DNA of 43,406 nucleotides from contig JADIMY010000086.1 of the NCBI GenBank assembly GCA_017694345.1, forward strand, positions 1 to 43,406, given 5' to 3'. The position numbers were made by a program, and so were the translations under genes. Shown piece after piece: positions 3,542 to 38,966 of this stretch. The notes under the pieces were generated by a model, which saw only the letters and a program-made list of their open reading frames with translations, ran no database searches and was not told the DNA's origin. This DNA comes from Candidatus Onthovivens merdipullorum (GTDB lineage Bacteria > Bacillota_I > Bacilli_A > RFN20 > CAG-826). Position 1 is the stretch's first letter, and each line of letters opens with the position of its first letter.

Positions 3542-4906
3542 ATGGATATAAATTTTAAAAATTTAGTAAAAAAATACGAAGGCGAAAACTTAAAGACTTT
3601 AAAAGGATTAATAAAAATAAATAGTATTTATGATGAAAAAAGTGTTACTAAAGATAGTCCTTATGGAAAAGGCGTACAAAATGCTTTTAACTATGTGAAA
3701 GAAATTGCTTTAAAAGATGGATTTAAAGTTGATACTTGTGATGGACATTGTTTAGAGATTAGTTGTGGTGAAGGAAAAACTTTAGTAGGAATTTTTGCTC
3801 ATTTAGATACAGTACCTGTTAGTGGAAATTGGATGTATGATCCATTTGGTGGTGAAATTCACGACAATAAAATGTATGGAAGAGGAACAAGTGATGATAA
3901 AGGACCTGCAATTGCTGCTTATTATGCCTTAAAAGCTTTAAAAGACAACGATTTAATAAAAAATTACCGTGTAAAATTAGTTTTAGGTGGAGACGAAGAA
4001 AGAGGTTCATCTTGTTTAGAATATTATTTTAAAAATTTAAAAAAAGAAGAAGTAACTTATGGATTTACTCCTGATGGAGATTTTCCTTTAATTTATGGAG
4101 AAAAGGGTATAACAAATTATTGTGTTGAAGGAAAGATTTTTTTAGGACCTATTAAAGAGATTAACGCAGGAGTAGCTAGTAATAGTGTTATTGATAAAGC
4201 ACTTATAAAAACATTTGATAAAAAGAAATTATTAGATTATTTAGATAAACACCAAGATATTAAATTTGAAGTCTTAGAAGAAAACGATGATGAGATCACT
4301 ATTAATTTTATAGGCAAAAGTGCTCATGGTAGTGTCCCTCAACTTGGTATAAATAGTGGAATTATTGCTTTAGATACTTTAGGAAAGGCTTTTGATATTA
4401 AATTTTTAAAAGATTTAGCCAACGATTATAAAGATCCTTTTGGTAAAAATTTAAATCAATATTATAAAAGCGAGGAAATGGGAGAAACAACATATAATGT
4501 TGGTTTAATTTCTTATAAAGATGACTATTTTAAGATGACAGTTAATTTTAGATATCCTGAAATAGTGAGTTCTAAAAAGGTTATTGAAGAATTAAGTAAA
4601 GATAGTCCTTTGCCTATTAAAGTTTTAAGTGAATCTAGTTATTTATATTATCCACTTAATACCCCTTTTATTAAAACCCTTTACGAAGTATATGTTAAAG
4701 AAACTAATGATACAATTAATAAACCAATGACAATCGGTGGAGGAACTTATGCTAAAGAAGCAAAAAATATAGTTGCTTTTGGTAGTCACTTTGTTGGTAA
4801 AGAAGATCACATCCACGAAGAAAACGAAAAGATTGATTTAGAAGATTTATTTAATTCAATGAGTTTATATGCCCATGCAATTTATGCTTTAGGAAATCTT
4901 AAATGA
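3542..4906 (+). CDS. pepV: M20 family dipeptidase PepV
   Basis: AHLDTVP, GRG.SDDKGP, DEE, PDGDFP..GEKG, SAHG and GGGTYA motifs. Confidence 0.88.
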   Translation: MDINFKNLVKKYEGENLKTLKGLIKINSIYDEKSVTKDSPYGKGVQNAFNYVKEIALKDGFKVDTCDGHCLEISCGEGKTLVGIFAHLDTVPVSGNWMYDPFGGEIHDNKMYGRGTSDDKGPAIAAYYALKALKDNDLIKNYRVKLVLGGDEERGSSCLEYYFKNLKKEEVTYGFTPDGDFPLIYGEKGITNYCVEGKIFLGPIKEINAGVASNSVIDKALIKTFDKKKLLDYLDKHQDIKFEVLEENDDEITINFIGKSAHGSVPQLGINSGIIALDTLGKAFDIKFLKDLANDYKDPFGKNLNQYYKSEEMGETTYNVGLISYKDDYFKMTVNFRYPEIVSSKKVIEELSKDSPLPIKVLSESSYLYYPLNTPFIKTLYEVYVKETNDTINKPMTIGGGTYAKEAKNIVAFGSHFVGKEDHIHEENEKIDLEDLFNSMSLYAHAIYALGNLK

Positions 4907-5565
4907 GAGTAAAATATAACGAAAAAGCAGTTAGTTATTTAAACGAAAATTTAGAAAATAAATTGAGTTTTGAAGACTTTTTGAATGAAAAACATGACTT
5001 TTTATCTCAAAAAAAAGATTTTTATTTAGAAATCGGACCTGGAAAAGGAAAGTTTATAATAGACTTAGCAGCTCGCTATTTAAACTTAAATTTTATTGTC
5101 TGTGAAATAAATAAAACAATTGCAGGGTATTGTTTAAAAGCAGTTGATGAGAGCGATTTAAAAAATGTTAAAGTTTGTGACTTTGATTTTTATAAATTAG
5201 CTGGGGTTTTAAAAAAAGATTTTTTTAGTGGTATTTTTTTAAATTTTAGTGATCCTTGGCCTAAAAAAAGACATACAAAGAGAAGATTAACAAGTGATCA
5301 ATTTTTTAAAGAATACTTTAAGATTTTAAAATTAAATCACTATATATATTTTAAGTCTGACAATGATAGATTTTACGAATTTTCTTTAGAGCAAGCTAAA
5401 AAATTTAAATATGAAATAGTTTATAATAATCTTGATTATAAAGATGATGATTTATTTGATAGTAAAACAGAGTATGAAGAAAAGTTTTTACAAAAAGGTA
5501 TAAAAATTAAAAGGTTTATCGCTAAAAAAGTGGAGGATACAGTTGATGAAATTAACGAAAATTGA
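4903..5565 (+). CDS. trmB: tRNA (guanine-N7)-methyltransferase
   Basis: EIGPGKG, LNFSDPWPKKRH.KRRLT, FKSD and TEYEEKF motifs. Confidence 0.93.
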   Translation: MRVKYNEKAVSYLNENLENKLSFEDFLNEKHDFLSQKKDFYLEIGPGKGKFIIDLAARYLNLNFIVCEINKTIAGYCLKAVDESDLKNVKVCDFDFYKLAGVLKKDFFSGIFLNFSDPWPKKRHTKRRLTSDQFFKEYFKILKLNHYIYFKSDNDRFYEFSLEQAKKFKYEIVYNNLDYKDDDLFDSKTEYEEKFLQKGIKIKRFIAKKVEDTVDEINEN

Positions 5566-6619
5566 TGAAAGATATTTAAAAGATTTAACACAAATTATTG
5601 CTCCTAGTGGTGTTGAAAATGATATTGCAACCTATCTAATTTCTGAATTTAAAAAGATGAATTTAGAAATTATTAAAGATAACTTAGGGAGTGTTTTTGC
5701 TTTAAAAAAATCTAAAAATCCAAATGCTAAAAAAGTTATGCTTTGTGCTCATATGGATGAAGTAGGTTTTTATGTTAAAAATATCTTACAAAACGGAATG
5801 ATTAAAGTTGTGACGATTGGTGGTTTTAATTTATCAACTTTACCTAGTCAACGAGTCATCCTTGTTAATAAAAACGGAAAGAAATTTTATGGAATGGTCG
5901 ATGCTTTACCTCCACATCTATTAAATGGCGAGCAAAAAGGAATCAAAGAAGATGATTTATTATTTGATTTTGGCTTTAAATCAAAAGATGAAGTATTAAA
6001 TAACGATGTAAATATCGGTGATTTTATTGTTTGTGAAGGTGAATTTCATTATACATTTAATGAAGAATCAATAATTTCAAAAGCAATCGATGATCGAGCC
6101 GGTTTAAGCTTAATAATGTCATCATTAAATGAAATTCTTAATACTGATTTAGATTATGATTTATATATTGGAGGAACAGTTCAAGAAGAAGTTGGTTGTC
6201 GAGGAGCTTTAACTAGTTCTTATTTAATAAAACCAGATGTTGCAATTGTTGTAGATGTTTCTCCAGCTAGAGATTCTAGTAGTAGCGATGCTATAGGAAA
6301 ACTTGGTGAAGGAGTTTTAATTAGATATTTTGATCGAACAATGATTGCCAATAAAAAGTTACTCGATTTGCAAATTGAAGCTTGTAAAAATGTTAATGCT
6401 AAATATCAATATTTTGATAGTCCTGGTGGCACTGATGCTGGCTCGATTCATAAAAATTTAGGTGGAATCTTCACTTTAACTCATTGTATATGTGCTAGAA
6501 GTATTCATAGTGCTAGTACCTTATTTAGAGTTAGTGATTATTTAGCCGCAAAGAATTCTTTAATCGAATTACTAACTAATATTTTAAATTCTAATTTAAT
6601 CGAGGAGTTAAAAAAATAA
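5546..6619 (+). CDS. M42 family (glutamyl) aminopeptidase
   Basis: AHMDEVG, KAIDDR, QEEVG.RG, GGTDAG and R.IH motifs; GGAGG RBS. Confidence 0.9.
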   Translation: MKLTKIDERYLKDLTQIIAPSGVENDIATYLISEFKKMNLEIIKDNLGSVFALKKSKNPNAKKVMLCAHMDEVGFYVKNILQNGMIKVVTIGGFNLSTLPSQRVILVNKNGKKFYGMVDALPPHLLNGEQKGIKEDDLLFDFGFKSKDEVLNNDVNIGDFIVCEGEFHYTFNEESIISKAIDDRAGLSLIMSSLNEILNTDLDYDLYIGGTVQEEVGCRGALTSSYLIKPDVAIVVDVSPARDSSSSDAIGKLGEGVLIRYFDRTMIANKKLLDLQIEACKNVNAKYQYFDSPGGTDAGSIHKNLGGIFTLTHCICARSIHSASTLFRVSDYLAAKNSLIELLTNILNSNLIEELKK

Positions 6620-6620
6620 T

Positions 6621-7232
6621 ATGAATTATGGTTTATATTACAATAAAGAAAAATTAGGGGATATTTTATTTTTGATTATTGAAAGTAGCACTCATCCAAA
6701 TAAAATTTTAAAAAACGATGAATTTGTTTTACTTTATAAAGAAGAAAAATTAATTGGTATTAATTTTTTAAATATTTCAAATAAAGTTAATCTTAATACG
6801 ACTGGTTTAATTTCTTTGCCTAGTAAAGAATTAATAAATACATTAAATAAAATCCTTATATCTACAAATATTGTGATTCCTCAAAAAGAAAATAGCGGTT
6901 TTATTGTTTCAAAAATTATTGATATTGAGGAACATCCTGAAAGTGACCATCTCCATATTTGTAAAGTCGATTGTGGAGAGAAAGAACCTATACAAGTAGT
7001 TTGTGGCGGATATAACGCTAGACTTAATTTAAAAACTGTTTTAGCTAAGCCATATACTTTTATGCCAGATGGATCTGAGATTATTCCTTCTAAGTTATTA
7101 GGTATAGAAAGTTATGGAATGCTTTGTAGTGAAAAAGAGCTTCATTTAGATAAACTAGAATATAAAAGAGGAATCATTGAGCTTGATGAAGCTTATAGTA
7201 TCGGGGACGATTTTTTTAAAGTAATTCAATAA
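6621..7232 (+). CDS. ytpR: YtpR-like tRNA-binding OB-fold protein
   Basis: HPESDHLH.C.VD, VVCG..N and S.GMLCS..EL motifs; conserved position after the M42 gene. Confidence 0.82.
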   Translation: MNYGLYYNKEKLGDILFLIIESSTHPNKILKNDEFVLLYKEEKLIGINFLNISNKVNLNTTGLISLPSKELINTLNKILISTNIVIPQKENSGFIVSKIIDIEEHPESDHLHICKVDCGEKEPIQVVCGGYNARLNLKTVLAKPYTFMPDGSEIIPSKLLGIESYGMLCSEKELHLDKLEYKRGIIELDEAYSIGDDFFKVIQ

Positions 7233-7254
7233 AAATTTAAAAAAATTAAATTTA

Positions 7255-7290
7255 TACCCCCCACTACCCCTCAATTTTTTACCACTTGTA
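7255..7290 (+). promoter_or_regulatory. Putative regulatory region of the Tad-like operon (TACCCC x2, T-tract, TACCACTTGTA box)
   Basis: TACCCC at 7255 and 7265; TACCACTTGTA at 7280-7290 recurs at 15111-15121. Confidence 0.45.
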
Positions 7291-7307
7291 TATGTAAGGT
7301 GGTAAAG

Positions 7308-8345
7308 ATGAGAAAATTATTAATATTATTCACTTCATTATTAAGTCTAACTTCACTTGGATTCATAAAAAAGAATGCTTTAAGTAGTAAAAATTATACT
7401 GAAAAGACTTATAAAGCTCCTAGCTATTATCAAATTAAAAATTTTGTACATTCTTTTGATTCCAAAAATGAATATCTAGTAGGAGAAGTTCCTTTAACAA
7501 TAAAATTAATTAATACTCAATATTATGTTGGAATAAATTATATTGATAAAAATAATAAAGAAATAAATTTAATTGAAGAGACTGTTAGAGATAAAGTAAG
7601 TTCTTCAAATAAAAATTATACATTAGATTTTAAATTGCCTTTAGCTAATTTAAAAGCGAATAGTAAAATTACAATTTATATTGAAGCTCCTTTATTAAGA
7701 AATGAATTAGAGATTACTTATAATATTACAAACCCAAAAGAAATAATTGATTTAAGCGAGAATAATAAAATCTATTACAATTTTGAATATTTTAATAATA
7801 CTGGTAAAAATTACTTTTATGAAGTAGTTCCTACTAGTTTTATAGAATGCGAGAAAAATATTTTTTATTTCGATTATTTTTCTTTTAAAGATTTTTATAT
7901 TGAATCTAATTATAGTAATACACCAAATCCATATTTATATATTTACGATAAATCAACTTTGTTTTTGAATGTTTTTACAACCATGAGTGGGGAAAGTACT
8001 TCAAAAAAATTTACTCCTTTAATCTTAACTAAAGATGGAAATAAATATTATATAGGTTATAAAAATAAAATTTATTTAAATAAGAATAATAATATTATGT
8101 ATTTAAATAATTTAGGAAATTATATAGAAGTAGAAGATAGAATCTATATGCCTAGTAATTATTACTATACATATAAAGATTTTAAAATTGGAATTTACTT
8201 TAAAAATTTTTCCAGTTTTAAATATCGTTTAACTTATGAAATTGAAATTCATTTTGAAGAAAATTATCGAAAAGAAGATAGTGTAATTTATAAAGAATAT
8301 GGATATGTTACACAAGATGATGTTTTAGAAGGAGTAAAAGTATGA
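7308..8345 (+). CDS. Secreted or surface hypothetical protein, first gene of the Tad-like operon
   Basis: Signal-peptide-like N-terminus MRKLLILFTSLLSLTSLG; Tyr/Asn-rich; AAGGTGG RBS; overlaps the next gene. Confidence 0.6.
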   Translation: MRKLLILFTSLLSLTSLGFIKKNALSSKNYTEKTYKAPSYYQIKNFVHSFDSKNEYLVGEVPLTIKLINTQYYVGINYIDKNNKEINLIEETVRDKVSSSNKNYTLDFKLPLANLKANSKITIYIEAPLLRNELEITYNITNPKEIIDLSENNKIYYNFEYFNNTGKNYFYEVVPTSFIECEKNIFYFDYFSFKDFYIESNYSNTPNPYLYIYDKSTLFLNVFTTMSGESTSKKFTPLILTKDGNKYYIGYKNKIYLNKNNNIMYLNNLGNYIEVEDRIYMPSNYYYTYKDFKIGIYFKNFSSFKYRLTYEIEIHFEENYRKEDSVIYKEYGYVTQDDVLEGVKV

Positions 8346-8749
8346 ATGTATCAATATTTTTCTTTGTAACAGTAATATTTTTAACTTTATTTAATGGATT
8401 TAATATTGGAATAAAAGGAAACTATATTAGTAGAACTTTTATTGATTTACCTGTAAGTCTTATTAAATCTTGTGTTTTAGTAAATGAAGAATCATATGAT
8501 GAAAATTCTTCTTATTTTGATAAAAATAAGCTTGAAGAAAATGTTAAAGAATATCTTACGATAAACTTAAAAGAACATGTAGAATCATATAATTTATCGT
8601 TTTATTACTTTTATTATGATGAAAATTTGGATTTAATTTATGATTTAGGTAATTATCCAAAAAATGTGCAAATACATTTTAATGCTGATATTTATAAAAA
8701 CATCGATATTGACAAATATTTAGTATTTACAATGGAAGATTTATTTTAA
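8342..8749 (+). CDS. Hypothetical protein with N-terminal hydrophobic helix, possible minor pilin
   Basis: MNVSIFFFVTVIFLTLF, then a soluble domain; directly before the TadA gene. Confidence 0.45.
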   Translation: MNVSIFFFVTVIFLTLFNGFNIGIKGNYISRTFIDLPVSLIKSCVLVNEESYDENSSYFDKNKLEENVKEYLTINLKEHVESYNLSFYYFYYDENLDLIYDLGNYPKNVQIHFNADIYKNIDIDKYLVFTMEDLF

Positions 8750-8762
8750 AAAGGAAGAGATT

Positions 8763-9815
8763 ATGGAAAAAGAAAGACTTATTAATTTTATCGAAAATTC
8801 GTTTATTAAGGATTTATTAAATAATCCTAACATTACAGATGTATCTTATAATGGTGAAAATATCTTTTATCAAGATAATATGGTAGGTAGAGTTAAATCT
8901 AGTTTAGAAGTTACTCAAAAAGAAGTACTTGATTTTATCCGTCAAATCGCCAATTTAAGTGATAATCAATTTAGTTACACTGATCCGATTTTAGATATGT
9001 CGATTGGTCGCTATAGAATAAATGCGACACATATGGCAATTGCTAGAAAAAATAGAGCAAACGCAATTACCTTTTCAATTAGAATAGGCTATGATGAACT
9101 AAGAATTAAAGAAGATAATACTTTTATAAAAGATAAGGCAATTGATTTATTAAAATTATTTTTGAACCGAAATAAATCTATTGTTATAGGTGGTTTAACT
9201 AGTAGTGGTAAAACAGAATTTCAAAAATATTTAATCTCTAAACTTAAACCAGCTACTAGAGTAATTATTATTGATAATGTCGATGAATTAGATAGTGATT
9301 ATATTAATAAATCAATAGATTTACAAACTTGGTTAAATCTAGAAAAGTTTAAAAATATTAATTTTGATAATTTGATTAAAAATGCCCTAAGAAATAATCC
9401 TGATTATTTAATAGTAAGTGAAGCTCGAGGAGAAGAAATGCTTTCGATATTAAATAGTGCGATGAGCGGTCACCCAACGATTACAACATTACACTCTAAA
9501 GACATCTATTCAATGTATCATAGAATGACTAGATTATGTATGTTAAAAAATCAAAATCTAAAATTTAATGAAACTTTAGAAGACATTTTTGATCAATTTA
9601 AGCTTTTAATATATCTTAAAAAAGAGATTTCAAAAGATGGAAAAGTAATAAGATATGTCGATCAAATTGCGACAAATCGATTTAAAAATATAAGGCTATT
9701 ATTTAAATATCCTAATACTTATTATCAGATTCCTAACTCCATTAAATATGATTTAAATTTAAGCGATGAAGAATTTATAAGTTTTAAAACAAGATGGGAG
9801 AGTAATAATGCATAA
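8763..9815 (+). CDS. tadA: CpaF/TadA (VirB11-family) pilus assembly ATPase
   Basis: ITD...NG, FSIR, Walker A GLTSSGKT, LR.NPD...VSEARG.E and His box SGH...TTLH. Confidence 0.85.
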   Translation: MEKERLINFIENSFIKDLLNNPNITDVSYNGENIFYQDNMVGRVKSSLEVTQKEVLDFIRQIANLSDNQFSYTDPILDMSIGRYRINATHMAIARKNRANAITFSIRIGYDELRIKEDNTFIKDKAIDLLKLFLNRNKSIVIGGLTSSGKTEFQKYLISKLKPATRVIIIDNVDELDSDYINKSIDLQTWLNLEKFKNINFDNLIKNALRNNPDYLIVSEARGEEMLSILNSAMSGHPTITTLHSKDIYSMYHRMTRLCMLKNQNLKFNETLEDIFDQFKLLIYLKKEISKDGKVIRYVDQIATNRFKNIRLLFKYPNTYYQIPNSIKYDLNLSDEEFISFKTRWESNNA

Positions 9816-10599
9816 AAGGTTATTAGTATATTTAGTAATTATTCTTTTAACATCGTTTTTATACTATTTTTCTACTAATAATCTATTACTTTCTTTAATA
9901 GTAGGTGTTATTGGAATTTTATCTTTAATACTTATAGAAAATAAAATATTTAATTATTATAAAAAAGCTAAAAAGACCCATGAATGTATTCAGTTTATGA
10001 ATAACTTTATAATTACTTTATCGATAAATAAGAGTATTTTATCAACTTATGAAATATGTTCTAAATCTTTTTCTAAAGAATTAAAACAACAAGATAAATT
10101 ATTAAGTAATCTAGATGTTGAAACAAGAATTCATTATTTATCTAAATATTTTAATAATTCTACATATGAGGTGTTTATTAAACTGTTGGATCAATATATT
10201 TATAATGGTGGTGAAATTTTAAAAATATCGCAAATCTTATTATTTGATGCACGCCAACTTGAAGAAGATATCGATAATCAATATTTACTAATTATTAAGA
10301 AAATATTTGAATTTGGTAGTTTATGGCTGATTACTTTCATTATTTTGGTAATTATAAAATTTAGTTTAAACGATTATTTTCTTAAAATTAGTAATCTTGA
10401 TTACTTTAAATATGGATTACTTGGATTCTTTGGTTTCTTTTATATAAATACTATTTTCTTTGTATATAACGCTTTTAATTTAAATTTTGTTAAAGAAGTT
10501 GTTAAAGAAAATAATAAAAAGAAAGTTACTAAAACTAAAAAAGATAAAAAGGAGAAAATCAAGAATGTTAAAATTAAAAGAAAAAATGCTTTTAACTAA
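9808..10599 (+). CDS. TadB-like membrane platform protein
   Basis: Two N-terminal TMs, soluble domain with GG motif, two C-terminal TMs; follows the ATPase. Confidence 0.6.
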   Translation: MHKRLLVYLVIILLTSFLYYFSTNNLLLSLIVGVIGILSLILIENKIFNYYKKAKKTHECIQFMNNFIITLSINKSILSTYEICSKSFSKELKQQDKLLSNLDVETRIHYLSKYFNNSTYEVFIKLLDQYIYNGGEILKISQILLFDARQLEEDIDNQYLLIIKKIFEFGSLWLITFIILVIIKFSLNDYFLKISNLDYFKYGLLGFFGFFYINTIFFVYNAFNLNFVKEVVKENNKKKVTKTKKDKKEKIKNVKIKRKNAFN

Positions 10600-11227
10600 T
10601 AAAGATCCTAAAAAAGAGATTCTTAATAATGTGCTAATAAATGTCGTTATATTATTAGTTTCAATTACAACATATTTACTAACGAAAAACTTTATGTATT
10701 TTATATATTTTGGAGCAACTTTAATTTTATTTAATTTTTATTACTTTAGTCGATATGGAAGATCTTTAGGCAAAAATAATGAAGTATTAGTCGATGATTT
10801 TATTGATACATTTACTTATTTTAGAATCTATGTTTCTAATAACCGTAATGTCTACATGTCATTAAAAGAAATTAGTAATTATTCTTCTCCTTTTATAAAA
10901 GGAAAACTTAATGAACTATTAAATGATATTGATGAAGACAAATCTTTAAAACCATTTCTTAAGTTTGCAAGTTATTTTAATAACAGAAAAGTAGAAGAAG
11001 TAATGATAGCGATATATGAAATGATTGATGAAGGAAGTAACGAAAACTATATCAATCAGTTTATTCAAACCTTCATGGCTTTTAAACTTAGGGTTAATAA
11101 AAAAAGAGAAGATAAAAGAAATTCAAATATAAATTTATCAATTACTTTAAGTATTGTTGGAGTAGGTATCTTAATGATTCTAATAATGCTTGGCATTATA
11201 TCAATTTTAGGAGAAATAGTTGTATGA
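10565..11227 (+). CDS. TadC-like membrane platform protein
   Basis: Two TMs, T2SSF-like helical domain, C-terminal TM; AGGAG RBS before ATG 10565. Confidence 0.55.
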   Translation: MLKLKEKMLLTNKDPKKEILNNVLINVVILLVSITTYLLTKNFMYFIYFGATLILFNFYYFSRYGRSLGKNNEVLVDDFIDTFTYFRIYVSNNRNVYMSLKEISNYSSPFIKGKLNELLNDIDEDKSLKPFLKFASYFNNRKVEEVMIAIYEMIDEGSNENYINQFIQTFMAFKLRVNKKREDKRNSNINLSITLSIVGVGILMILIMLGIISILGEIVV

Positions 11228-11589
11228 GTAATAAATTAGCATTAATTTTATGTATTCCATTTATTTTATTCGTGTTCTTGTTTGGAGTAGATCTAGTAAT
11301 GATTCAAACAGTCTATACAAATTTAGATTCAATAAGTGAAACGATATCTTATAAGATTTCACAAAACGGGATTGATTCAAATGGGAATATTGATAAAAGT
11401 ATAGAACAATATCTATACGAAACAACAGGAGCGATTATAGTTTCTAACAACAATAATAAGGCTAATTTCTTAGAAGGTGACATCTTCGCCTATACGCTTT
11501 CTAAAGAATATCAACCAATATTATTGTCTAGTAAAACTATAACAATAAATATTGATCGATACGCAGTTATCGGAATTAATCATTCATAA
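11224..11589 (+). CDS. TadE-like pseudopilin
   Basis: LALILCIPFILFVFLFGVD resembles the TadE N-terminal helix; operon position. Confidence 0.5.
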   Translation: MSNKLALILCIPFILFVFLFGVDLVMIQTVYTNLDSISETISYKISQNGIDSNGNIDKSIEQYLYETTGAIIVSNNNNKANFLEGDIFAYTLSKEYQPILLSSKTITINIDRYAVIGINHS

Positions 11590-11602
11590 GGAGGTATTAA
11601 AC

Positions 11603-11779
11603 ATGGGTGAAATTAAAGGTCAATTATTAGGAATTGTATTAGTATTATCAATCTTTGGTATTGTAGCAACAGCTTTAACTACAGCATTTACAAATGTTAG
11701 CGACGATGTTGTTACCAAAATAGAAAGTTCAACAGAAATTACACCAGCTGCTCAAAATAACGATTTACTTAGCTTCTGA
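11603..11779 (+). CDS. Flp-like small major pilin candidate (58 aa)
   Basis: Strong AAGGAGG RBS; MGEIKGQ, then a hydrophobic helix and an amphipathic tail; last gene of the operon. Confidence 0.6.
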   Translation: MGEIKGQLLGIVLVLSIFGIVATALTTAFTNVSDDVVTKIESSTEITPAAQNNDLLSF

Positions 11780-11799
11780 GCTAAATAATTAATAGATGT

Positions 11800-11832
11800 A
11801 AAAAAATTAGGTTTATGGGGCCTAATTTTTTT
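11800..11832 (+). terminator. Terminator of the Tad-like operon (bidirectional form)
   Basis: AAAAAAATTAGGTTT-atg-GGGCCTAATTTTTTT. Confidence 0.8.
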
Positions 11833-11843
11833 GATTTATTTAA

Positions 11844-12242
11844 TATGAAGTAGATGAAGTAGCCACTACATTAATACGAAGCGATAAATATAATGCTTTA
11901 GGTAATAAAGAAAAAGCCGAATTGCTTAAAAAGTTATTCGATTATTATTTTGATTATGCAAAAAATATGACACTTAACTTAAACGAAGGTTCTAGATTTG
12001 TTAAAGCAATGACTTTAATTAATAATTTTGATATATCTAAATATTTATTTCTTAAAGGTGAAACAAAAGAAGAAAGCGTTAAAGAAGTTAATAAAATATT
12101 TATAACAAGAAACCAAAGATTATTTGCTTTATTTTTACTTGGGTATAATTTAACTAAAGAAAACAAACAAGTTCTATATCGATATTTAATTACTTTAGGA
12201 GTGAATAGGAATACTGTTAAAGAATGGGTTGGTATTGAATAA
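11844..12242 (+). pseudogene. 5'-truncated gene fragment, possibly the C-terminus of a large phage virion protein
   Basis: Frame is open from the stop at 11841 with no RBS-supported start; contains SDKYNALGNKEKAELLKKLFDYYFDYAK; lies next to a tRNA 3' end. Confidence 0.4.
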
Positions 12243-12348
12243 GCACAAAAAATAGTAGAAGTAACTAGCGTGTTACTAGTTTTTCTAATAATTGTTAAGA
12301 CATTTTTAAAAAGTATAAGGTTATTTTTATTTTTAAAATTTTGAAAAA

Positions 12349-12380
12349 GGCTTCCAAAAAGGCTTCCATAGGGGCTTCCA
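12349..12380. repeat. Three direct repeats GGCTTCCA at 12-bp spacing (integrase arm-site-like)
   Basis: Copies at 12349, 12361 and 12373, about 40 bp from the tRNA-Arg 3' end. Confidence 0.8.
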
Positions 12381-12384
12381 AAAA

Positions 12385-12409
12385 TAAAAAAGTTCGATTT
12401 AATCGAACT
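12385..12409 (-). terminator. Terminator after the tRNA cluster
   Basis: AGTTCGATT-T-AATCGAACT inverted repeat with a T-run on the minus strand. Confidence 0.65.
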
Positions 12410-12420
12410 AATTTGCAATT

Positions 12421-12497
12421 TGGCGCGCCTGACAGGAGTCGAACCCGTAACCTCTTGGTTCGTAGCCAAGCACTCTATCCAGTTGAGCTACAGGCGC
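12421..12497 (-). tRNA. tRNA-Arg (ACG)
   Basis: Cloverleaf; anticodon arm CTTGG-CTACGAA-CCAAG; GTTCGA T-loop; encoded CCA. Confidence 0.96.
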
Positions 12498-18767: not shown

Positions 18768-19250
18768 ATGTATCTAAGAAAAGAAGCCAAAGATATGATA
18801 AAGGAAATTTGTAATCGTTATAAAGACGAACCAAGTCCTTTAATGCTTATTTTAAGTGACACACAAAAAGAATATGGTTATATTCCTTTAGAAGTTCAAG
18901 AAATTATTAGTGAAGAAACTGGAATTCCAGTTAGCGAAATTTATGGTGTTGTAACTTTTTATTCATTTTTTAGTTTAGTTCCCAAAGGAAGGTATGTTAT
19001 CGGAGTTTGTATTGGAACGGCTTGCTATGTTAAAGGTGGACAGAATGTTTTAGATAAATTTGGAGAATTACTTCATATAAAGCAAGGTCAAACTACAGAA
19101 GATGGATTGTTTACTTTAGATGGACTTAGATGTATTGGAGCTTGTGGTATTGCTCCTGCTATTTCGATAAATGGCAAAGTTTATCCAAAAGTAAAATTAG
19201 CTGATATTCCTAAAATTATTAAAGAATACCGTGAAAAGGAGATTGAATAA
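18768..19250 (+). CDS. hydC: [FeFe]-hydrogenase subunit gamma (NuoE-like, 2Fe-2S)
   Basis: GVVTFY, C.GTAC and CIGAC..AP motifs. Confidence 0.88.
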   Translation: MYLRKEAKDMIKEICNRYKDEPSPLMLILSDTQKEYGYIPLEVQEIISEETGIPVSEIYGVVTFYSFFSLVPKGRYVIGVCIGTACYVKGGQNVLDKFGELLHIKQGQTTEDGLFTLDGLRCIGACGIAPAISINGKVYPKVKLADIPKIIKEYREKEIE

Positions 19251-21127
19251 TGAAAGTTAAATCTATCCAAACTCTAAATGATTTAAATAAAAAAATTAAA
19301 TCTTGTGAAGAATGCGTAACTAAAAAATTTAATGGAGAAGATGGCAAAAGACATATCGTAGTTTGTGGTGGAACTGGATGTTTAAGCAGTGATTCTCAAT
19401 TAATAATCGATAATTTTAATAATCTTATTAAAAAGCATAAACTAGAAGATAAAGTTACTTGTAATGTTGTCGGATGTTTTGGTTTTTGTTCTCAAGGTCC
19501 ATTTGTAAAAATTTATCCTGAAGATACTTTATATCACGCTGTTAAACCAAGTGACTGCGAAAAGATTTTTGAAAGCGATATTTTAAATAATAAAATTGTC
19601 GAGGAACTTTTATATGAAGATCCTAATACTCACGAAAAAATAAAAAGACAAGATGATATTAATTTTTATAAAAAACAACTACGCATTGTTTTAAATGGTT
19701 GTGGGCAAATAAATCCTGAAATTATTGATGAAGCCTTAGGATTTGGTGCCTTTAAAGGTTTAATCAAAGCTTTATCCATGAAACGCCAAGATGTAATTAA
19801 TGAAGTTTTAAATAGCGGACTTAGAGGTAGAGGTGGAGCTGGTTTCTCAACGGGCAAAAAGTGGCAGTTTGCATACAATCAAGATAACAATACAAAATAT
19901 GTAGTTTGTAATGGAGATGAAGGTGACCCAGGTGCATTCATGGATCGTTCTATATTAGAGGGCAATCCAGTTAGTGTTATTGAGGGAATGATGATTGCTG
20001 GTTATGCAATCGGTGCTGAGAATGGTTATTTTTATGTTCGAGCTGAATATCCAATTGCTGTTAAAAGGTTACAAATTGCTATTAAAGAATTAGAAGAACT
20101 TGGCTTATTAGGCAAAAACATTTTAAATAGCGGATTTAACTTTAATGTTCATATTCGTTTAGGTGCTGGAGCCTTTGTTTGTGGAGAAGAAACAGCCTTA
20201 CTTAATTCTATTGAGGGAAAAAGAGGTATGCCTCGTCCTAGACCTCCTTTCCCAGCTGTTAAGGGTTTATGGGGTAAACCAACAATCATTAATAATGTTG
20301 AAACATTAGCTAATGTACCTTATATTTTAAGAATCGGCGCTGAAAAATTTGCAAGTATTGGGACTGAAAAATCTAAAGGAACAAAAGTTTTTGCATTGGG
20401 TGGTAAAGTTAAAAATGTCGGTTTAGTTGAAGTTCCTATGGGAACTACATTAAGAGAATTAATTTATGATATCGGAGGAGGTATTCCTAATAATAAGCGT
20501 TTCCAAGCTATTCAAACAGGTGGTCCTAGTGGTGGATGTTTAACTTTAAGTGAACTCGATACTCCAATTGACTTCGATAATTTAATTGCAAAAGGATCAA
20601 TGATGGGAAGTGGTGGTGCAATTGTTATGGACGAAGATAATTGTATGGTTGATGTTGCTAAATTTTATCTAGAGTTTATTTGTGATGAAAGCTGTGGCAA
20701 ATGTAGTCAATGTCGTATAGGAACAAAGAGATTATTAGAAATTCTTACTAAAGTTACTGATGGAAGAGCAACATTAGAAGATATTGATAAACTTGAATCT
20801 TTAAGCGAATCAATTCAAGTTGGTAGCTTATGTGGCTTAGGACAAACAGCACCTAACCCAGTAATTTCTACTCTTACGAAATTTAGAGATGTTTATCTTA
20901 GACATGTCGTTGATAAAAAGTGTGATGCTGGTGTATGTAAAAATTTAATTAGTTTTCATATCGATCCTAATAAATGTAAGAAGTGTAGTTTGTGTGCTAG
21001 AAACTGTCCAGTTAACGCTATAAGTGGTGTAGTTGGTAAAGAAGTATTTAAGATTGATAATAATAAATGTATTAAATGTGGAACTTGTATTAGTGCTTGT
21101 AAATTTAATGCAATTTATAAAAAGTGA
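19250..21127 (+). CDS. hydB: [FeFe]-hydrogenase subunit beta (NuoF-like, FMN/NADH-binding)
   Basis: GRGGAGF, NGDEGDPGAFMDR, GAGAFVCGEET and ESCGKC..CR motifs; C-terminal 2x[4Fe-4S] ferredoxin. Confidence 0.92.
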   Translation: MKVKSIQTLNDLNKKIKSCEECVTKKFNGEDGKRHIVVCGGTGCLSSDSQLIIDNFNNLIKKHKLEDKVTCNVVGCFGFCSQGPFVKIYPEDTLYHAVKPSDCEKIFESDILNNKIVEELLYEDPNTHEKIKRQDDINFYKKQLRIVLNGCGQINPEIIDEALGFGAFKGLIKALSMKRQDVINEVLNSGLRGRGGAGFSTGKKWQFAYNQDNNTKYVVCNGDEGDPGAFMDRSILEGNPVSVIEGMMIAGYAIGAENGYFYVRAEYPIAVKRLQIAIKELEELGLLGKNILNSGFNFNVHIRLGAGAFVCGEETALLNSIEGKRGMPRPRPPFPAVKGLWGKPTIINNVETLANVPYILRIGAEKFASIGTEKSKGTKVFALGGKVKNVGLVEVPMGTTLRELIYDIGGGIPNNKRFQAIQTGGPSGGCLTLSELDTPIDFDNLIAKGSMMGSGGAIVMDEDNCMVDVAKFYLEFICDESCGKCSQCRIGTKRLLEILTKVTDGRATLEDIDKLESLSESIQVGSLCGLGQTAPNPVISTLTKFRDVYLRHVVDKKCDAGVCKNLISFHIDPNKCKKCSLCARNCPVNAISGVVGKEVFKIDNNKCIKCGTCISACKFNAIYKK

Positions 21128-21135
21128 GAAGATAT

Positions 21136-22917
21136 ATGGCAAAAATTCAGATTTTTATAGAAAATAAACCTTATGTGGTTGAAGAAGGACTAACAATACT
21201 TGAAGCTTGCAAAATTTGCGGGTTTAATATTCCAAATTTATGTAGTTATCGAAATGGTGAATGTAGTGTGGCAAGTTGTCGTGTCTGTTTAGTTCATGTC
21301 GATGGAGAAAGAAGACTTGTTCCGAGTTGTGCTTATCCTATTAGAGAAGGGATACACATTTCAATAAATGATCCAAAAGCTGTCATTGCTAGAAGAACTA
21401 GTGTTGAGCTACTTTTATCTAATCATTATTATAATTGCCAAGCTTGTAGAAAAAACGGACAATGTGAATTACTAGAAGTTGCTAAAAGAGTTGGTGCTCG
21501 TCCTGAAATGTATGTTGGAGAAAAAACTAAAACAACATATGATGATTTAGCACCTAGTTTAGTAAGAGACACATCAAAATGTGTTTTATGTGGTCGCTGT
21601 ATTGAAGCTTGTAAAAAGACCCAAGGTATTGGAATTTTAGGATTTGAAAATCGTGGATTTAATACTATCGTAGGACCAAGTGAAAATCGCTCTTTTGCTA
21701 ATGTTCCTTGCATTCAATGCGGACAATGTACATTAGTTTGTCCTACTGGAGCATTAATGGAACATAATGAAATAGATAAATTAGATAAAGCATTCCAAGA
21801 TGGAAAATATGTTATAGTTCAAACTGCTCCTGCGGTAAGGGCAGCAATTGGCGAAGAATTTGGTGAAAAAATTGGAACTAGAGTAACTGGCAAAATGGTT
21901 GCTGCATTACATCGTCTTGGATTTTATAGAGTTTTTGATACTAATTTTGCAGCTGATTTAACGATAACTGAAGAAGCTAATGAATTTATTCAAAGAATTA
22001 CATCACATCGACCAGGTCCAATGATTACAAGCTGTTCTCCAGGTTGGATTAATTATATTGAATATTATTACCCAGATTTATTACCACATTTATCAAGCTG
22101 CAAATCTCCTCATGAAATGATGGGAGCTATTATTAAATCTTACTTTGCAGAAAAGCATAATATAGATCGTTCACAAATTTGTGTAGTTTCAGTTATGCCT
22201 TGCACTGCTAAAAAATATGAAAAAGAAAGACCTGCAAACAGTGTAGATGGAATTAGTGATGTTGATGTTGTTTTAACTACTAGAGAATTTGCACAATTAA
22301 TTAAAAGAGCTGGTATCGTATGGAAAAAATTACCTGATGAAGAATTCGATGATGATTTAATAGGTGATTATAGTGGAGCTGGTGCAATTTTTGGTGTTAC
22401 TGGGGGAGTTATGGAAGCAGCTATAAGAACTGCTTATCATATTTTAACTAATGAAGAGCTTGAACCTATTGAATTCACTCCTTGTAGAGGTTTAGAAGGT
22501 ATTAAAGAAGCAAGTTTAAAAATTGGTGGACAAACTTATAATTTTGCGATGTGTAGTGGTATGAAAAATGCTAAAGTTATTTTAGAGCAAATTAAAAATA
22601 ACGAATGCAAATACGATTTTGTAGAAGTTATGGGTTGCCCAGGTGGATGTATTAATGGTGGTGGTCAACCATATGTTATTCCTTTATTTTTGCCTAATGA
22701 AGATGATGATATACAAGATACTTACATTAAGAAAAGAGCCGAAGCACTTTATGATGAAGACCGTGCAAGAAAAGTGCGTAGATCCCACTTGAATCCTGAC
22801 ATTATTAAATTATATAAAGATTATTTAGGAGAATATGGTTCACCTAAAGCCCATAAGTTACTACATACAACTTATAATTATCATCGTGAAAAATATCCTG
22901 ATTTAAATAAAGATTAA
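21136..22917 (+). CDS. hydA: [FeFe]-hydrogenase catalytic subunit (group A3-type)
   Basis: H-cluster motifs TSCSPGW, MPCTAKKYE and EVMGCPGGCINGGG; N-terminal 2Fe-2S, His-ligated and 2x4Fe-4S domains. Confidence 0.93.
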   Translation: MAKIQIFIENKPYVVEEGLTILEACKICGFNIPNLCSYRNGECSVASCRVCLVHVDGERRLVPSCAYPIREGIHISINDPKAVIARRTSVELLLSNHYYNCQACRKNGQCELLEVAKRVGARPEMYVGEKTKTTYDDLAPSLVRDTSKCVLCGRCIEACKKTQGIGILGFENRGFNTIVGPSENRSFANVPCIQCGQCTLVCPTGALMEHNEIDKLDKAFQDGKYVIVQTAPAVRAAIGEEFGEKIGTRVTGKMVAALHRLGFYRVFDTNFAADLTITEEANEFIQRITSHRPGPMITSCSPGWINYIEYYYPDLLPHLSSCKSPHEMMGAIIKSYFAEKHNIDRSQICVVSVMPCTAKKYEKERPANSVDGISDVDVVLTTREFAQLIKRAGIVWKKLPDEEFDDDLIGDYSGAGAIFGVTGGVMEAAIRTAYHILTNEELEPIEFTPCRGLEGIKEASLKIGGQTYNFAMCSGMKNAKVILEQIKNNECKYDFVEVMGCPGGCINGGGQPYVIPLFLPNEDDDIQDTYIKKRAEALYDEDRARKVRRSHLNPDIIKLYKDYLGEYGSPKAHKLLHTTYNYHREKYPDLNKD

Positions 22918-38498: not shown

Positions 38499-38966
38499 AT
38501 GGATAGAATAAGTTGGGACGAATATTTTATGGGTATAGCCCTACTAAGTGCAAAAAGAAGTAAAGATCCTTCTACACAAGTTGGAGCTTGTATTGTAGAT
38601 GACGAAAATAAAGTTGTCTCCATTGGTTATAATGGAATGCCTAGACATTGTGATGACAATAAATTAACTTGGGAAAAAGGTGAAGACTTAGATAATAAAT
38701 ATCTTTATGTTTGTCACGCTGAATTTAACGCTATTTTAAACACCCGTAGTGGTAGTAGTTTAAAAGGAACAAGAATTTATGTTACTTTATTTCCTTGTAA
38801 TGAATGTGCAAAAGCTATTATTCAAGTCGGGATTAAAGAAGTCATCTATCTAAGCGATAAATATGAAAATCAACTTTCAACTCGTGCTAGTAAAAAATTA
38901 TTAGATGTCGCTGGGATAAAATATCATCAATATAAAGGTAGATACACTAAAGTAGAATTAGATTAA
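38499..38966 (+). CDS. dCMP deaminase
   Basis: WDEYFM, RSKDP.TQVG, HAE.NAI and FPCNEC motifs. Confidence 0.92.
   Translation: MDRISWDEYFMGIALLSAKRSKDPSTQVGACIVDDENKVVSIGYNGMPRHCDDNKLTWEKGEDLDNKYLYVCHAEFNAILNTRSGSSLKGTRIYVTLFPCNECAKAIIQVGIKEVIYLSDKYENQLSTRASKKLLDVAGIKYHQYKGRYTKVELD

Follow-up and report, generated by a model that had tools for sequence, protein, structure and literature searches.

Whether a type IV filament (T4F) can be built from seven genes and without a dedicated prepilin peptidase is the question raised by an operon on a 43,406-nucleotide contig (JADIMY010000086.1, analysed over its whole length and referred to here as the window) from the metagenome-assembled genome (MAG) of Candidatus Onthovivens merdipullorum, which comprises 1.46 Mb in 137 contigs with a G+C content of ~26%. 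An earlier note, made from the sequence alone, had described the operon as a minimal, divergent and lineage-specific Tad-like pilus locus. Here, we find that the operon (genes g1–g7) combines a T2SSE-superfamily ATPase, two paralogous platform-like membrane proteins, a small TadE/F-like protein and a 58-residue pilin candidate, that it is kept across almost all of its bacterial family, and that the genomes carrying it almost always lack a prepilin peptidase of the A24 family. In our judgment, it probably encodes a minimal T4F machine that belongs to a branch of its own, as yet without a name, and that most likely serves attachment.

The earlier description of seven tightly coupled genes, closed by a terminator and embedded among housekeeping genes, was correct in every point checked. 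Seven co-directional open reading frames (ORFs) occupy the + strand from 7308 to 11779, where they had previously been placed, with only the start of g5 re-chosen; junctions between consecutive genes are overlaps of 4, 8, 35 and 4 nt or, otherwise, gaps of 13 nt. The operon ends with an intrinsic terminator on the same strand (11791–11840), in which a U-run comes after a hairpin folding at −16.2 kcal/mol (z = −4.1); a simple terminator scan had missed it, and 0 of 200 shuffles equalled or beat its fold. TrmB, an M42 aminopeptidase and YtpR are encoded upstream, and four tRNAs, acyl carrier protein (ACP) and CTP synthase downstream. As the earlier note had stated, all proteins except the ATPase are too divergent to name: g3 alone passes a curated family cut-off, whereas the six other proteins remain below the cut-offs of both Pfam and NCBIfam. 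Six of the seven proteins thus define new families; the pilin profile reaches 600 relatives, and that of the ATPase finds relatives in 302 species-level genomes. The analyses of the individual genes support the layout of a minimal T4F that had also been proposed previously, with an ATPase, a pair of platform-like paralogues, a protein resembling a pseudopilin and a small one resembling a pilin.

The putative motor, g3 (8763–9815), is a 350-residue ATPase of the T2SSE superfamily, assigned to its VirB11/TadA/FlaI branch. It scores 70.6 bits against Pfam T2SSE (cut-off 24.9; E = 1.3e-19), its Walker A motif (residue 144), Asp box (171), Walker B motif (216) and His box (236) are intact, and it is the sole T2SSE ATPase above the cut-off in its own genome. 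None of the named NCBIfam models claims it: the scores are 112 bits for VirB11 (cut-off 249.95), 88.9 for the TadA family (373), 84.4 for TrbB (304.55), 66.7 for ComGA (300) and 82.4 for FlaI, the last likewise far under its cut-off. Profile matches of the g3 family to PDB sequences are led by the VirB11 protein HP0525 (E = 3.2e-26), a VirB11-like protein (4.2e-26) and the archaeal GspE 2oap (7.8e-26), with weaker matches to CpaF (2.7e-18) and FlaI (1.5e-17).

The position of g3 was examined further in quick maximum-likelihood trees (LG+G4 without a mixture model, SH-aLRT support only), in which the references comprised two TadA/CpaF and three type IV secretion system (T4SS) sequences, with neither archaeal nor Gram-positive Tad members, and four PilB sequences served as the root. 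The window ATPase family forms its own clade with a support of 98–99. In the PilB-rooted tree the proteobacterial VirB11/TrbB and TadA/CpaF references cluster together (94), apart from a 48-row clade (99) that holds the window family, an unnamed sister clade and a clade of ATPases from pXO2-type and Enterococcus faecium plasmids; an SH-aLRT value of 99 unites the window clade with the plasmid clade. Of 53 outgroup ATPases compared with NCBIfam at E 1e-60, none was named except one odd protein of 1156 residues. As g3 falls outside the clade that holds both reference sets, it appears to group neither with P-type VirB11/TrbB nor with the TadA/CpaF references.

Two polytopic membrane proteins follow directly after the ATPase, in the manner of TadB/TadC. 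The 263-residue g4 (9808–10599) is built like a platform protein of the TadB/TadC kind and ends in a Lys-rich tail, and g5 (10565–11227) is a 220-residue T2SSF-like protein; the ATG at 10565 was picked by alignment with 36 relatives, the ORF listing having started at an upstream TTG (10487). Comparison of the two profiles with hhalign (probability 94%, E = 1.3e-7) identifies them as paralogues. Against seven PilC proteins of relatives from the same order, g5 aligned over 222 columns of the second T2SSF half (E = 4.7e-5, probability 68%), while g2 and g6, included as controls, gave E ~0.55. In the ESM Atlas, g5 reached a feature score of 0.97 to a cluster labelled 'T2SS F family' and TM values of 0.70–0.71 to clusters with PF00482 in 89% and 60% of their members, and Pfam T2SSF itself was reached weakly by 3 of 37 g5 family members (best E = 0.0012, 13.5 bits against a cut-off of 25.2). 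A search of 5.8 billion proteins with the g5 profile returned only its own family, without Pfam domains and without a bridge to T2SSF; g4 matched no Pfam family, and profile searches of PDB sequences with g4 and g5 found nothing below E 0.2. Taken together, the comparisons give moderate support to g4 and g5 as TadB/TadC-like T2SSF platform proteins. The earlier note had named, as one combination that would refute its reading, an ATPase grouping with conjugative VirB11 and membrane proteins lacking the T2SSF fold; the ATPase instead lies apart from P-type VirB11/TrbB, and g5 shows the T2SSF similarity described above.

The pilin candidate g7 (11603–11779) encodes 58 residues behind an AAGGAGG motif placed 8 nt upstream of its start. 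Its sequence opens with M-G-E-I-K-G and Q, continues as a hydrophobic helix of ~22 residues and closes with an acidic tail that varies among members. In the family as a whole the six-residue start is mostly M-S-E-I-K-G; E-[ILV]-K-G-[QN] is found in 184/184 distinct members, exactly six residues precede the Gln in 178 of them, M1, E3, K5, G6, Q7 and F18 are invariant, and the tail ends in Phe or Tyr in 119/184. Residue −1 is Gly in g7 and Ala in a second family (f8). A leader of six residues is the length found in type IVa pilins, and the overall architecture suggests a small type IV pilin, making g7 a candidate for the filament subunit. A related start is seen in g6 (11224–11589), a 121-residue protein of DUF4320/TadE-F-like type that combines a single hydrophobic helix with a short, polar N-terminal stretch (M-S-x-K-L-G/A) and that we regard as a candidate minor pilin: M-[SGA]-x-[KN]-[LIVFM]-[GAS] is present in 65/68 sequences, and D23 and D35 are invariant. 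Weak Pfam matches among 34 g6 members were to TadF (two) and DUF4320 (one), the g6 profile found nothing below E 0.2 among PDB sequences, and hhalign detected no relationship among g1, g2, g6 and g7.

The first two genes of the operon are less readily placed. The 345-residue g1 (7308–8345; ATG preceded by AAGGTGG, with an alternative GTG at 7299) is predicted to be secreted or N-terminally anchored, a hydrophobic N-terminus being present in 20 aligned positional orthologues, and it is rich in Tyr, Asn and Lys with an acidic C-terminal tail. BLAST recognized g1 in 35 of the 80 loci compared below, and genes of 370–385 residues overlapping the start of g2 formed further BLAST clusters of 23, 18, 11, 6 and 5 loci; because genes in the same place split into several such clusters, g1 appears to be kept in position while evolving fast. 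It showed no Pfam or NCBIfam family over the cut-off, no PDB match (E < 0.2) and no ESM Atlas match, and is perhaps best viewed as a candidate filament-associated surface protein or adhesin. The 135-residue g2 (8342–8749) combines one N-terminal transmembrane helix, a G-x-x-I-N-R motif and a beta-rich domain; it has no family and no PDB match below E 0.2, matches the gene preceding the ATPase on an E. faecium plasmid only weakly (E = 0.054), and may possibly be a minor-pilin-like protein or an assembly factor.

To establish how widely the operon occurs, the ATPase profile was used to search the GTDB collection, and gene order was read in the best 80 of the loci recovered. Alongside the ATPase, g2 was found in 70, g4 in 78 and g5, g6 and g7 in 72 each, with the misses largely at contig ends, so that the comparison of synteny across relatives suggested by the earlier note reveals a g2–g7 order kept in 70–78 of 80 loci. 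This recurrence far exceeds chance. A family sample was drawn from 150 genomes of the same order, each at least 90% complete, 72 of which belong to the family of the window; the ATPase is present in 69 of these 72, corresponding to 21 of 22 genera, and in 8/8 genomes of a second family of the order, and was found in 0/8, 0/30 and 0/24 genomes of three other families. In a separate sample of the genus it occurs in 27/36 genomes. Ratios of nonsynonymous to synonymous substitution (dN/dS) against two relatives, which are rough because dS is saturated, range from 0.09 to 0.48 across the seven genes, with 0.17–0.22 for g7, 0.24–0.30 for g2 and the operon maximum of 0.38–0.48 for g1, and point to purifying selection on all seven. 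The upstream genes of the window operon are shared only with the nearest locus, and a guanylate-kinase-like (gmk-like) gene lies upstream in 62 of the 80 loci, many of which also carry CNNM/CorC transporters and thymidine kinase, with ACP downstream in 18. No integrase, relaxase or T4SS genes appear among the annotated flanking families of the 80 loci. Because it is present family-wide and shares housekeeping flanks without mobility genes, the operon is a vertically kept core chromosomal trait, not the cargo of a mobile element. Only one relative was found among 2.9 million viral contigs. A defence or phage system was considered and dropped: PADLOC gave no credible match, and the PHROGs matches were to the ATPase alone, in families of unknown function.

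Several further observations concern the sampled copies. Operon copies on short contigs in bins labelled Slackia, Parabacteroides, Acutalibacteraceae, Lachnospiraceae and Oscillospiraceae, with ATPases 46–60% identical to that of the window, are probably mis-binned contigs rather than transfers. One in-frame TGA each interrupts the ATPase frame of three family genomes (G093, G144 and G135), reflecting either TGA recoding in some members or sequencing errors; the window uses TGA as a stop codon (in g7). The stretch itself was found in 14 DNA sequencing runs from four studies (8 chicken gut metagenome, 4 metagenome and 2 synthetic metagenome), and no RNA run was among the runs listed.

How the operon relates to known filament systems depends on which features are given weight. 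With Tad/Flp pili it has in common a single ATPase of bifunctional type from the TadA/VirB11/FlaI branch, two single-domain platform-like paralogues behind it, a TadE/F-like small protein and a candidate pilin of ~60 residues consisting of a helix and a short tail, together with the absence of PilT, PilM, PilN and PilO. Unlike in Tad systems, the ATPase lies outside the TadA/CpaF reference clade and is shorter (350 versus 450–489 residues), the sequence after the Gly of g7 (Q-L-L-G-I-V) contains neither the Flp motif G/XXXXEY nor the Flp Tyr at +6, and the operon has no Pfam Flp match, TadZ, RcpC/CpaB or secretin. The absence of TadZ from the operon, already remarked upon, was upheld by the lack of AAA_31/CbiA matches in the seven proteins, a genome-wide TadZ search not having been made, and the genome lacks TadV. 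In Imam et al. (2011), even divergent Gram-positive tad-like loci still carry tadV and tadZ (PMC3244431). The operon thus resembles a stripped-down Tad pilus but, by its ATPase clade and the lack of a Flp motif, TadV and TadZ, would not belong among the Tad systems, and the assignment to Tad in the earlier note overstated its membership.

Resemblances to two other systems are more partial. The archaeal type IV pili of the Epd-like kind are likewise encoded by a minimal gene set with pilins lacking Glu at +5, and the g3 profile scores the archaeal GspE 2oap as high as VirB11. The Lys-Gly junction followed by Gln, as seen in g7, is also that of Methanococcus EppA substrates. In contrast to the window operon, with its two platform proteins and no A24 enzyme, the archaeal systems have one two-domain platform protein and always a class III peptidase (PMC13705601). 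The ComG pilus of Bacilli is a monoderm T4F from the same class of organisms with ComEA, ComEC and DprA as partners, but it uses one two-domain ComGB-type platform where the operon has two single-domain proteins, and its ComGC-type prepilins and ComC peptidase are absent here.

The lack of a prepilin peptidase, which the earlier note had remarked on for TadV in the operon, extends to the whole genome and far beyond it. A scan with PF01478 gave 0 candidates in the own genome, while the same model was positive in 12/14 control genomes, and a hidden Markov model (HMM) built from six A24 peptidases of the order found nothing among six-frame ORFs (best E = 0.35). In the genus, an A24 match over the cut-off was obtained in 1/36 genomes; in the family, 3/72 genomes had one, all three with the operon ATPase, so that 66 of the 69 operon-bearing family genomes lack an A24 peptidase. 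Of four sub-cut-off matches, the three inspected (in G008, G090 and G093) are unrelated ORFs that do not match the A24 HMM of the order. In a sample of 60 relatives, seven genomes carried an A24 peptidase over the cut-off, each with a PilB/ComGA-like ATPase match on the same contig, and these seven regions hold a canonical cluster of minor pilins (K-K-G, then F-T-L-V-E), PilD, PilC (~402 residues) and PilB (~560 residues). The canonical pilus cluster is a separate system, sporadic in the order and independent of the operon studied here. In the one such locus with a long enough flank, a large pilin lies downstream. Loci without their own peptidase, such as MSH, sit in genomes with a peptidase elsewhere, according to a published survey (PMC6668835). 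Because the genomes hold no A24 peptidase, the g7 pilin would either enter the filament uncleaved or be trimmed by some enzyme outside the A24 family.

By analogy with related machines, the g3 hexamer would sit under a platform of g4 and g5 and, with ATP, lift g7 from the membrane, the subunits being stacked by their hydrophobic N-terminal helices into a thin, Flp-sized filament; g6, and perhaps g2, may prime or cap the filament, and g1, secreted and fast-evolving, would be presented on the filament or next to it. If g7 is used uncleaved, the invariant Glu3 and Lys5 could take over the charge pairing of Glu5 and the N-terminal amine. No secretin or wall-spanning parts would be required in a cell with a single membrane and probably no wall. 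A search for MurG (TIGR01133) in the genome, which is 86% complete, found none, so the organism is probably wall-less and may be peptidoglycan-deficient in the way described for some families of related orders (PMC10868615). That a T4F machine truly works without a prepilin peptidase, with the fixed six-residue start of g7 (and of g6) left uncleaved or cut by a non-A24 protease, is a tentative proposal, held with rather less than even confidence. With regard to function, attachment to gut surfaces is ranked first and DNA capture upstream of ComEA/ComEC second, because a secreted g1 that evolves fast and pilin tails that vary are suggestive of surface interaction.

A different kinship emerged from plasmids. 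The best plasmid match of the ATPase is on an E. faecium plasmid (pA10290_P3; 31.8% identity over 95% of the query), followed by pXO2-type plasmids and pXO1, where the proteins are annotated as 'CpaF/VirB11 family' or 'T2SS/T4P/T4SS family'. On the E. faecium plasmid and pXO2 the gene order is a transmembrane protein of 119–140 residues, the ATPase, two membrane proteins of 249–277 residues, a DUF4320 protein of 120 residues and a transmembrane protein of 48 residues; TrbC/VirB2-like genes come next on both plasmids, and the E. faecium plasmid has, further downstream, a gene annotated as VirD4-like. HMM searches of a small ORF set gave matches at the corresponding positions of E. faecium and pXO2, respectively, for the ATPase (7e-65 and 6e-52), g4 (3e-6 and 1.3e-5) and g5 (1.6e-5 and 1.4e-5), and, in the same kind of set, the g6 HMM matched the DUF4320-annotated gene at the same position on the two plasmids (4.2e-6 and 9.2e-9). 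The g7 HMM found no homologue on the two plasmids, the small transmembrane proteins of which lack the M-S-E-I-K-G-Q start, and the plasmid homologues of g4 and g5 have no Pfam T2SSF match. In one Bacilli genome (G186) the sister-clade ATPase lies between g6-, g4- and g5-like genes (g4 HMM, E = 2.7e-7) and VirB6- and VirB4-like genes. The ATPase, both membrane proteins and the DUF4320-like gene thus have homologues, in collinear order, in a module carried by Gram-positive conjugative plasmids and elements, and the lineage-specific character given to the operon in the earlier note gives way to this wider relationship. The pXO1 plasmid departs from the pXO2-type module in carrying a more Tad-like set (at 3884–8471 of the locus extracted from it), composed of an AAA_31 (TadZ-like) ATPase, a CpaF/VirB11 ATPase, a 310-residue protein (weak T2SSF match, 0.014) and two proteins of 67–68 residues.

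The plasmid module (CDS 19–23 of pAW63/pXO2 in PMC1196294, and its counterpart on pA10290_P3) differs from the window operon in other respects too: the plasmid ATPases (443–471 residues) have an N-terminal extension of ~100 residues that g3 lacks, and the plasmid modules are embedded in T4SS sets with TrbC/VirB2-, VirD4- and VirB4-like genes, whereas the window operon is chromosomal, vertical and VirB4-independent. In the pAW63 paper, the ATPase is called VirB11 and its neighbours conserved hypothetical proteins (PMC1196294), and annotation of the block there and in another report goes no further than a T4SS ATPase whose neighbours are unknown (PMC1196294; PMC9673590). The own genome does contain an ICE-like (integrative and conjugative element-like) fragment, the 16.6-kb contig C87 (79–5065 and onward), with ORFs for an 8-transmembrane-helix, 727-residue VirB6-like protein, a 927-residue VirB3/4-like protein (27% identical to the VirB4-like protein of G186) and a Dam-like methylase, labelled by eye. 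In another family of the order, 8/8 genomes have this VirB4-like protein, six of them in two copies that are in tandem in at least five.

These relationships make it conceivable that the operon was domesticated from, or stands alone as a module of, a Gram-positive conjugative T4SS, and that its ATPase and membrane proteins work with a T4SS from another locus to form mating pairs or transfer DNA: the best named homologues of the operon are on conjugative plasmids, it shares a strongly supported clade and gene order with them, the sister-clade ATPase of G186 neighbours VirB6- and VirB4-like genes, and the VirB3/4-like gene of contig C87 is in the same genome. We nevertheless regard this as very unlikely. 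A VirB4-like protein occurs in only 2 of the 72 family genomes against 69 with the operon, neither PF02534 nor BLAST with plasmid proteins detected VirD4 in the own genome, VirB4, VirD4 and other mating-pair or T4SS genes are absent from the window as they are from the annotated flanks of the 80 loci, and the plasmid modules lack a g7-type pilin. Because the VirB4-like protein is confined to 2/72 genomes and VirD4 was not found, the chromosomal operon does not depend on a T4SS. Another arrangement, in which a complex resembling a type II secretion system (T2SS) with a short pseudopilus or none exports or displays g1 or other proteins and the 58-residue protein is a membrane subunit and not a fibre, is also unlikely, if slightly less so. 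It would accommodate the missing peptidase, the lack of Glu at +5 and the constant place of g1 as the first gene of the operon, and T2SS pseudopili belong to the same superfamily (PMC6668835); however, g1 has its own Sec-type N-terminus and would need no special exporter in a single-membrane cell, and conservation in g7 is strongest in the N-terminal helix, as in polymerising pilins.

The remaining alternative keeps the machine and changes its main function: as a competence pseudopilus, the operon would replace the missing ComG and hand DNA to ComEA/ComEC. The search for comEA, comEC and dprA in the absence of comG, suggested earlier, found ComEA and ComEC adjacent and DprA present in the own genome, with no ComGA-like ATPase and no second T2SSE ATPase, and there are precedents for DNA uptake that depends on Tad/Flp (PMC4322843, PMC8513845); Tad/Flp pili serve competence in this way in Micrococcus luteus. 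The operon contains no ComGC-type prepilins (G followed by FTLxE). ComEC was, however, found in 20/24 genomes of other families of the order, with or without the operon, and 12/24 show neither this ATPase nor a PilB/ComGA-like one; because ComEC is present regardless of the operon, co-occurrence gives no support to DNA uptake. A pseudopilus may also be dispensable for access to DNA in a wall-less cell, and the fast-evolving g1 and variable pilin tails fit surface interaction better, so that a main role in competence appears a fairly improbable, though real, possibility.

The preferred reading, a T4F of a distinct branch used for attachment, has to be set against several findings that count in the opposite direction. 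The closest homologous modules sit in conjugative elements, not in adhesion loci, and attachment is a function that we infer. The T2SSF assignment of g4 and g5 draws on one moderate profile–profile match, weak Pfam scores and Atlas look-alikes, with g4 itself matching the PilC set weakly (E = 0.008). The +5 residue of g7 is Ile or Val and not Glu; g7 has no Pfam pilin or Flp match, and its 600 profile relatives are nearly all unnamed, with no Pfam domain in any. The MAG is only 86% complete, with 1.7% contamination. Finally, the described T4F systems of bacteria and archaea are all held to need a class III (A24) signal peptidase, which counts as part of the universal T4F core, and a T4F lacking it would run counter to that accepted minimum (PMC4471445; PMC13705601). 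Because the peptidase is part of that core, 'not a filament' and 'undetected peptidase' are both live options.

Should a peptidase-free filament nonetheless be confirmed, three parts would be left of the 'universal' four-part T4F core throughout a family of wall-less gut Bacilli, and the 'VirB11' modules of Gram-positive conjugative plasmids may likewise be pilus-building modules for mating. A family-wide system without A24 would reveal either that pilins can be matured or used in a way not seen before or that a further class of peptidase exists. Mollicutes served as a negative set free of type IV pili in one study (PMC3244431), and an operon for a probable filament, kept as a core trait in a probably wall-less relative, bears on attachment or DNA uptake in reduced gut symbionts. 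The collinear homology also offers a testable reading of the block of 'VirB11 plus hypothetical proteins' on pAW63/pXO2-type and enterococcal plasmids. Literature on DUF4320, on RFN20 with pili and on peptidase-less pili yielded no description of this system, the supplements of the cited papers having been left unopened.

Elsewhere in the window, two overlapping family-less ORFs lie between the terminator and the tRNA cluster, at 11922–12242 (+) and 11954–12469 (−), the former encoding 106 residues with no NCBIfam match. At 38499–38966 a ComEB-like dCMP deaminase (91 bits, below the cut-off) shows a weak resemblance to anti-phage dCTP deaminases. A gene set at 18768–22917, which resembles an electron-bifurcating hydrogenase operon, encodes NuoE-like and NuoF-like proteins together with an NADH-dependent [FeFe] hydrogenase of group A6 that scores 801.8 bits (cut-off 765).

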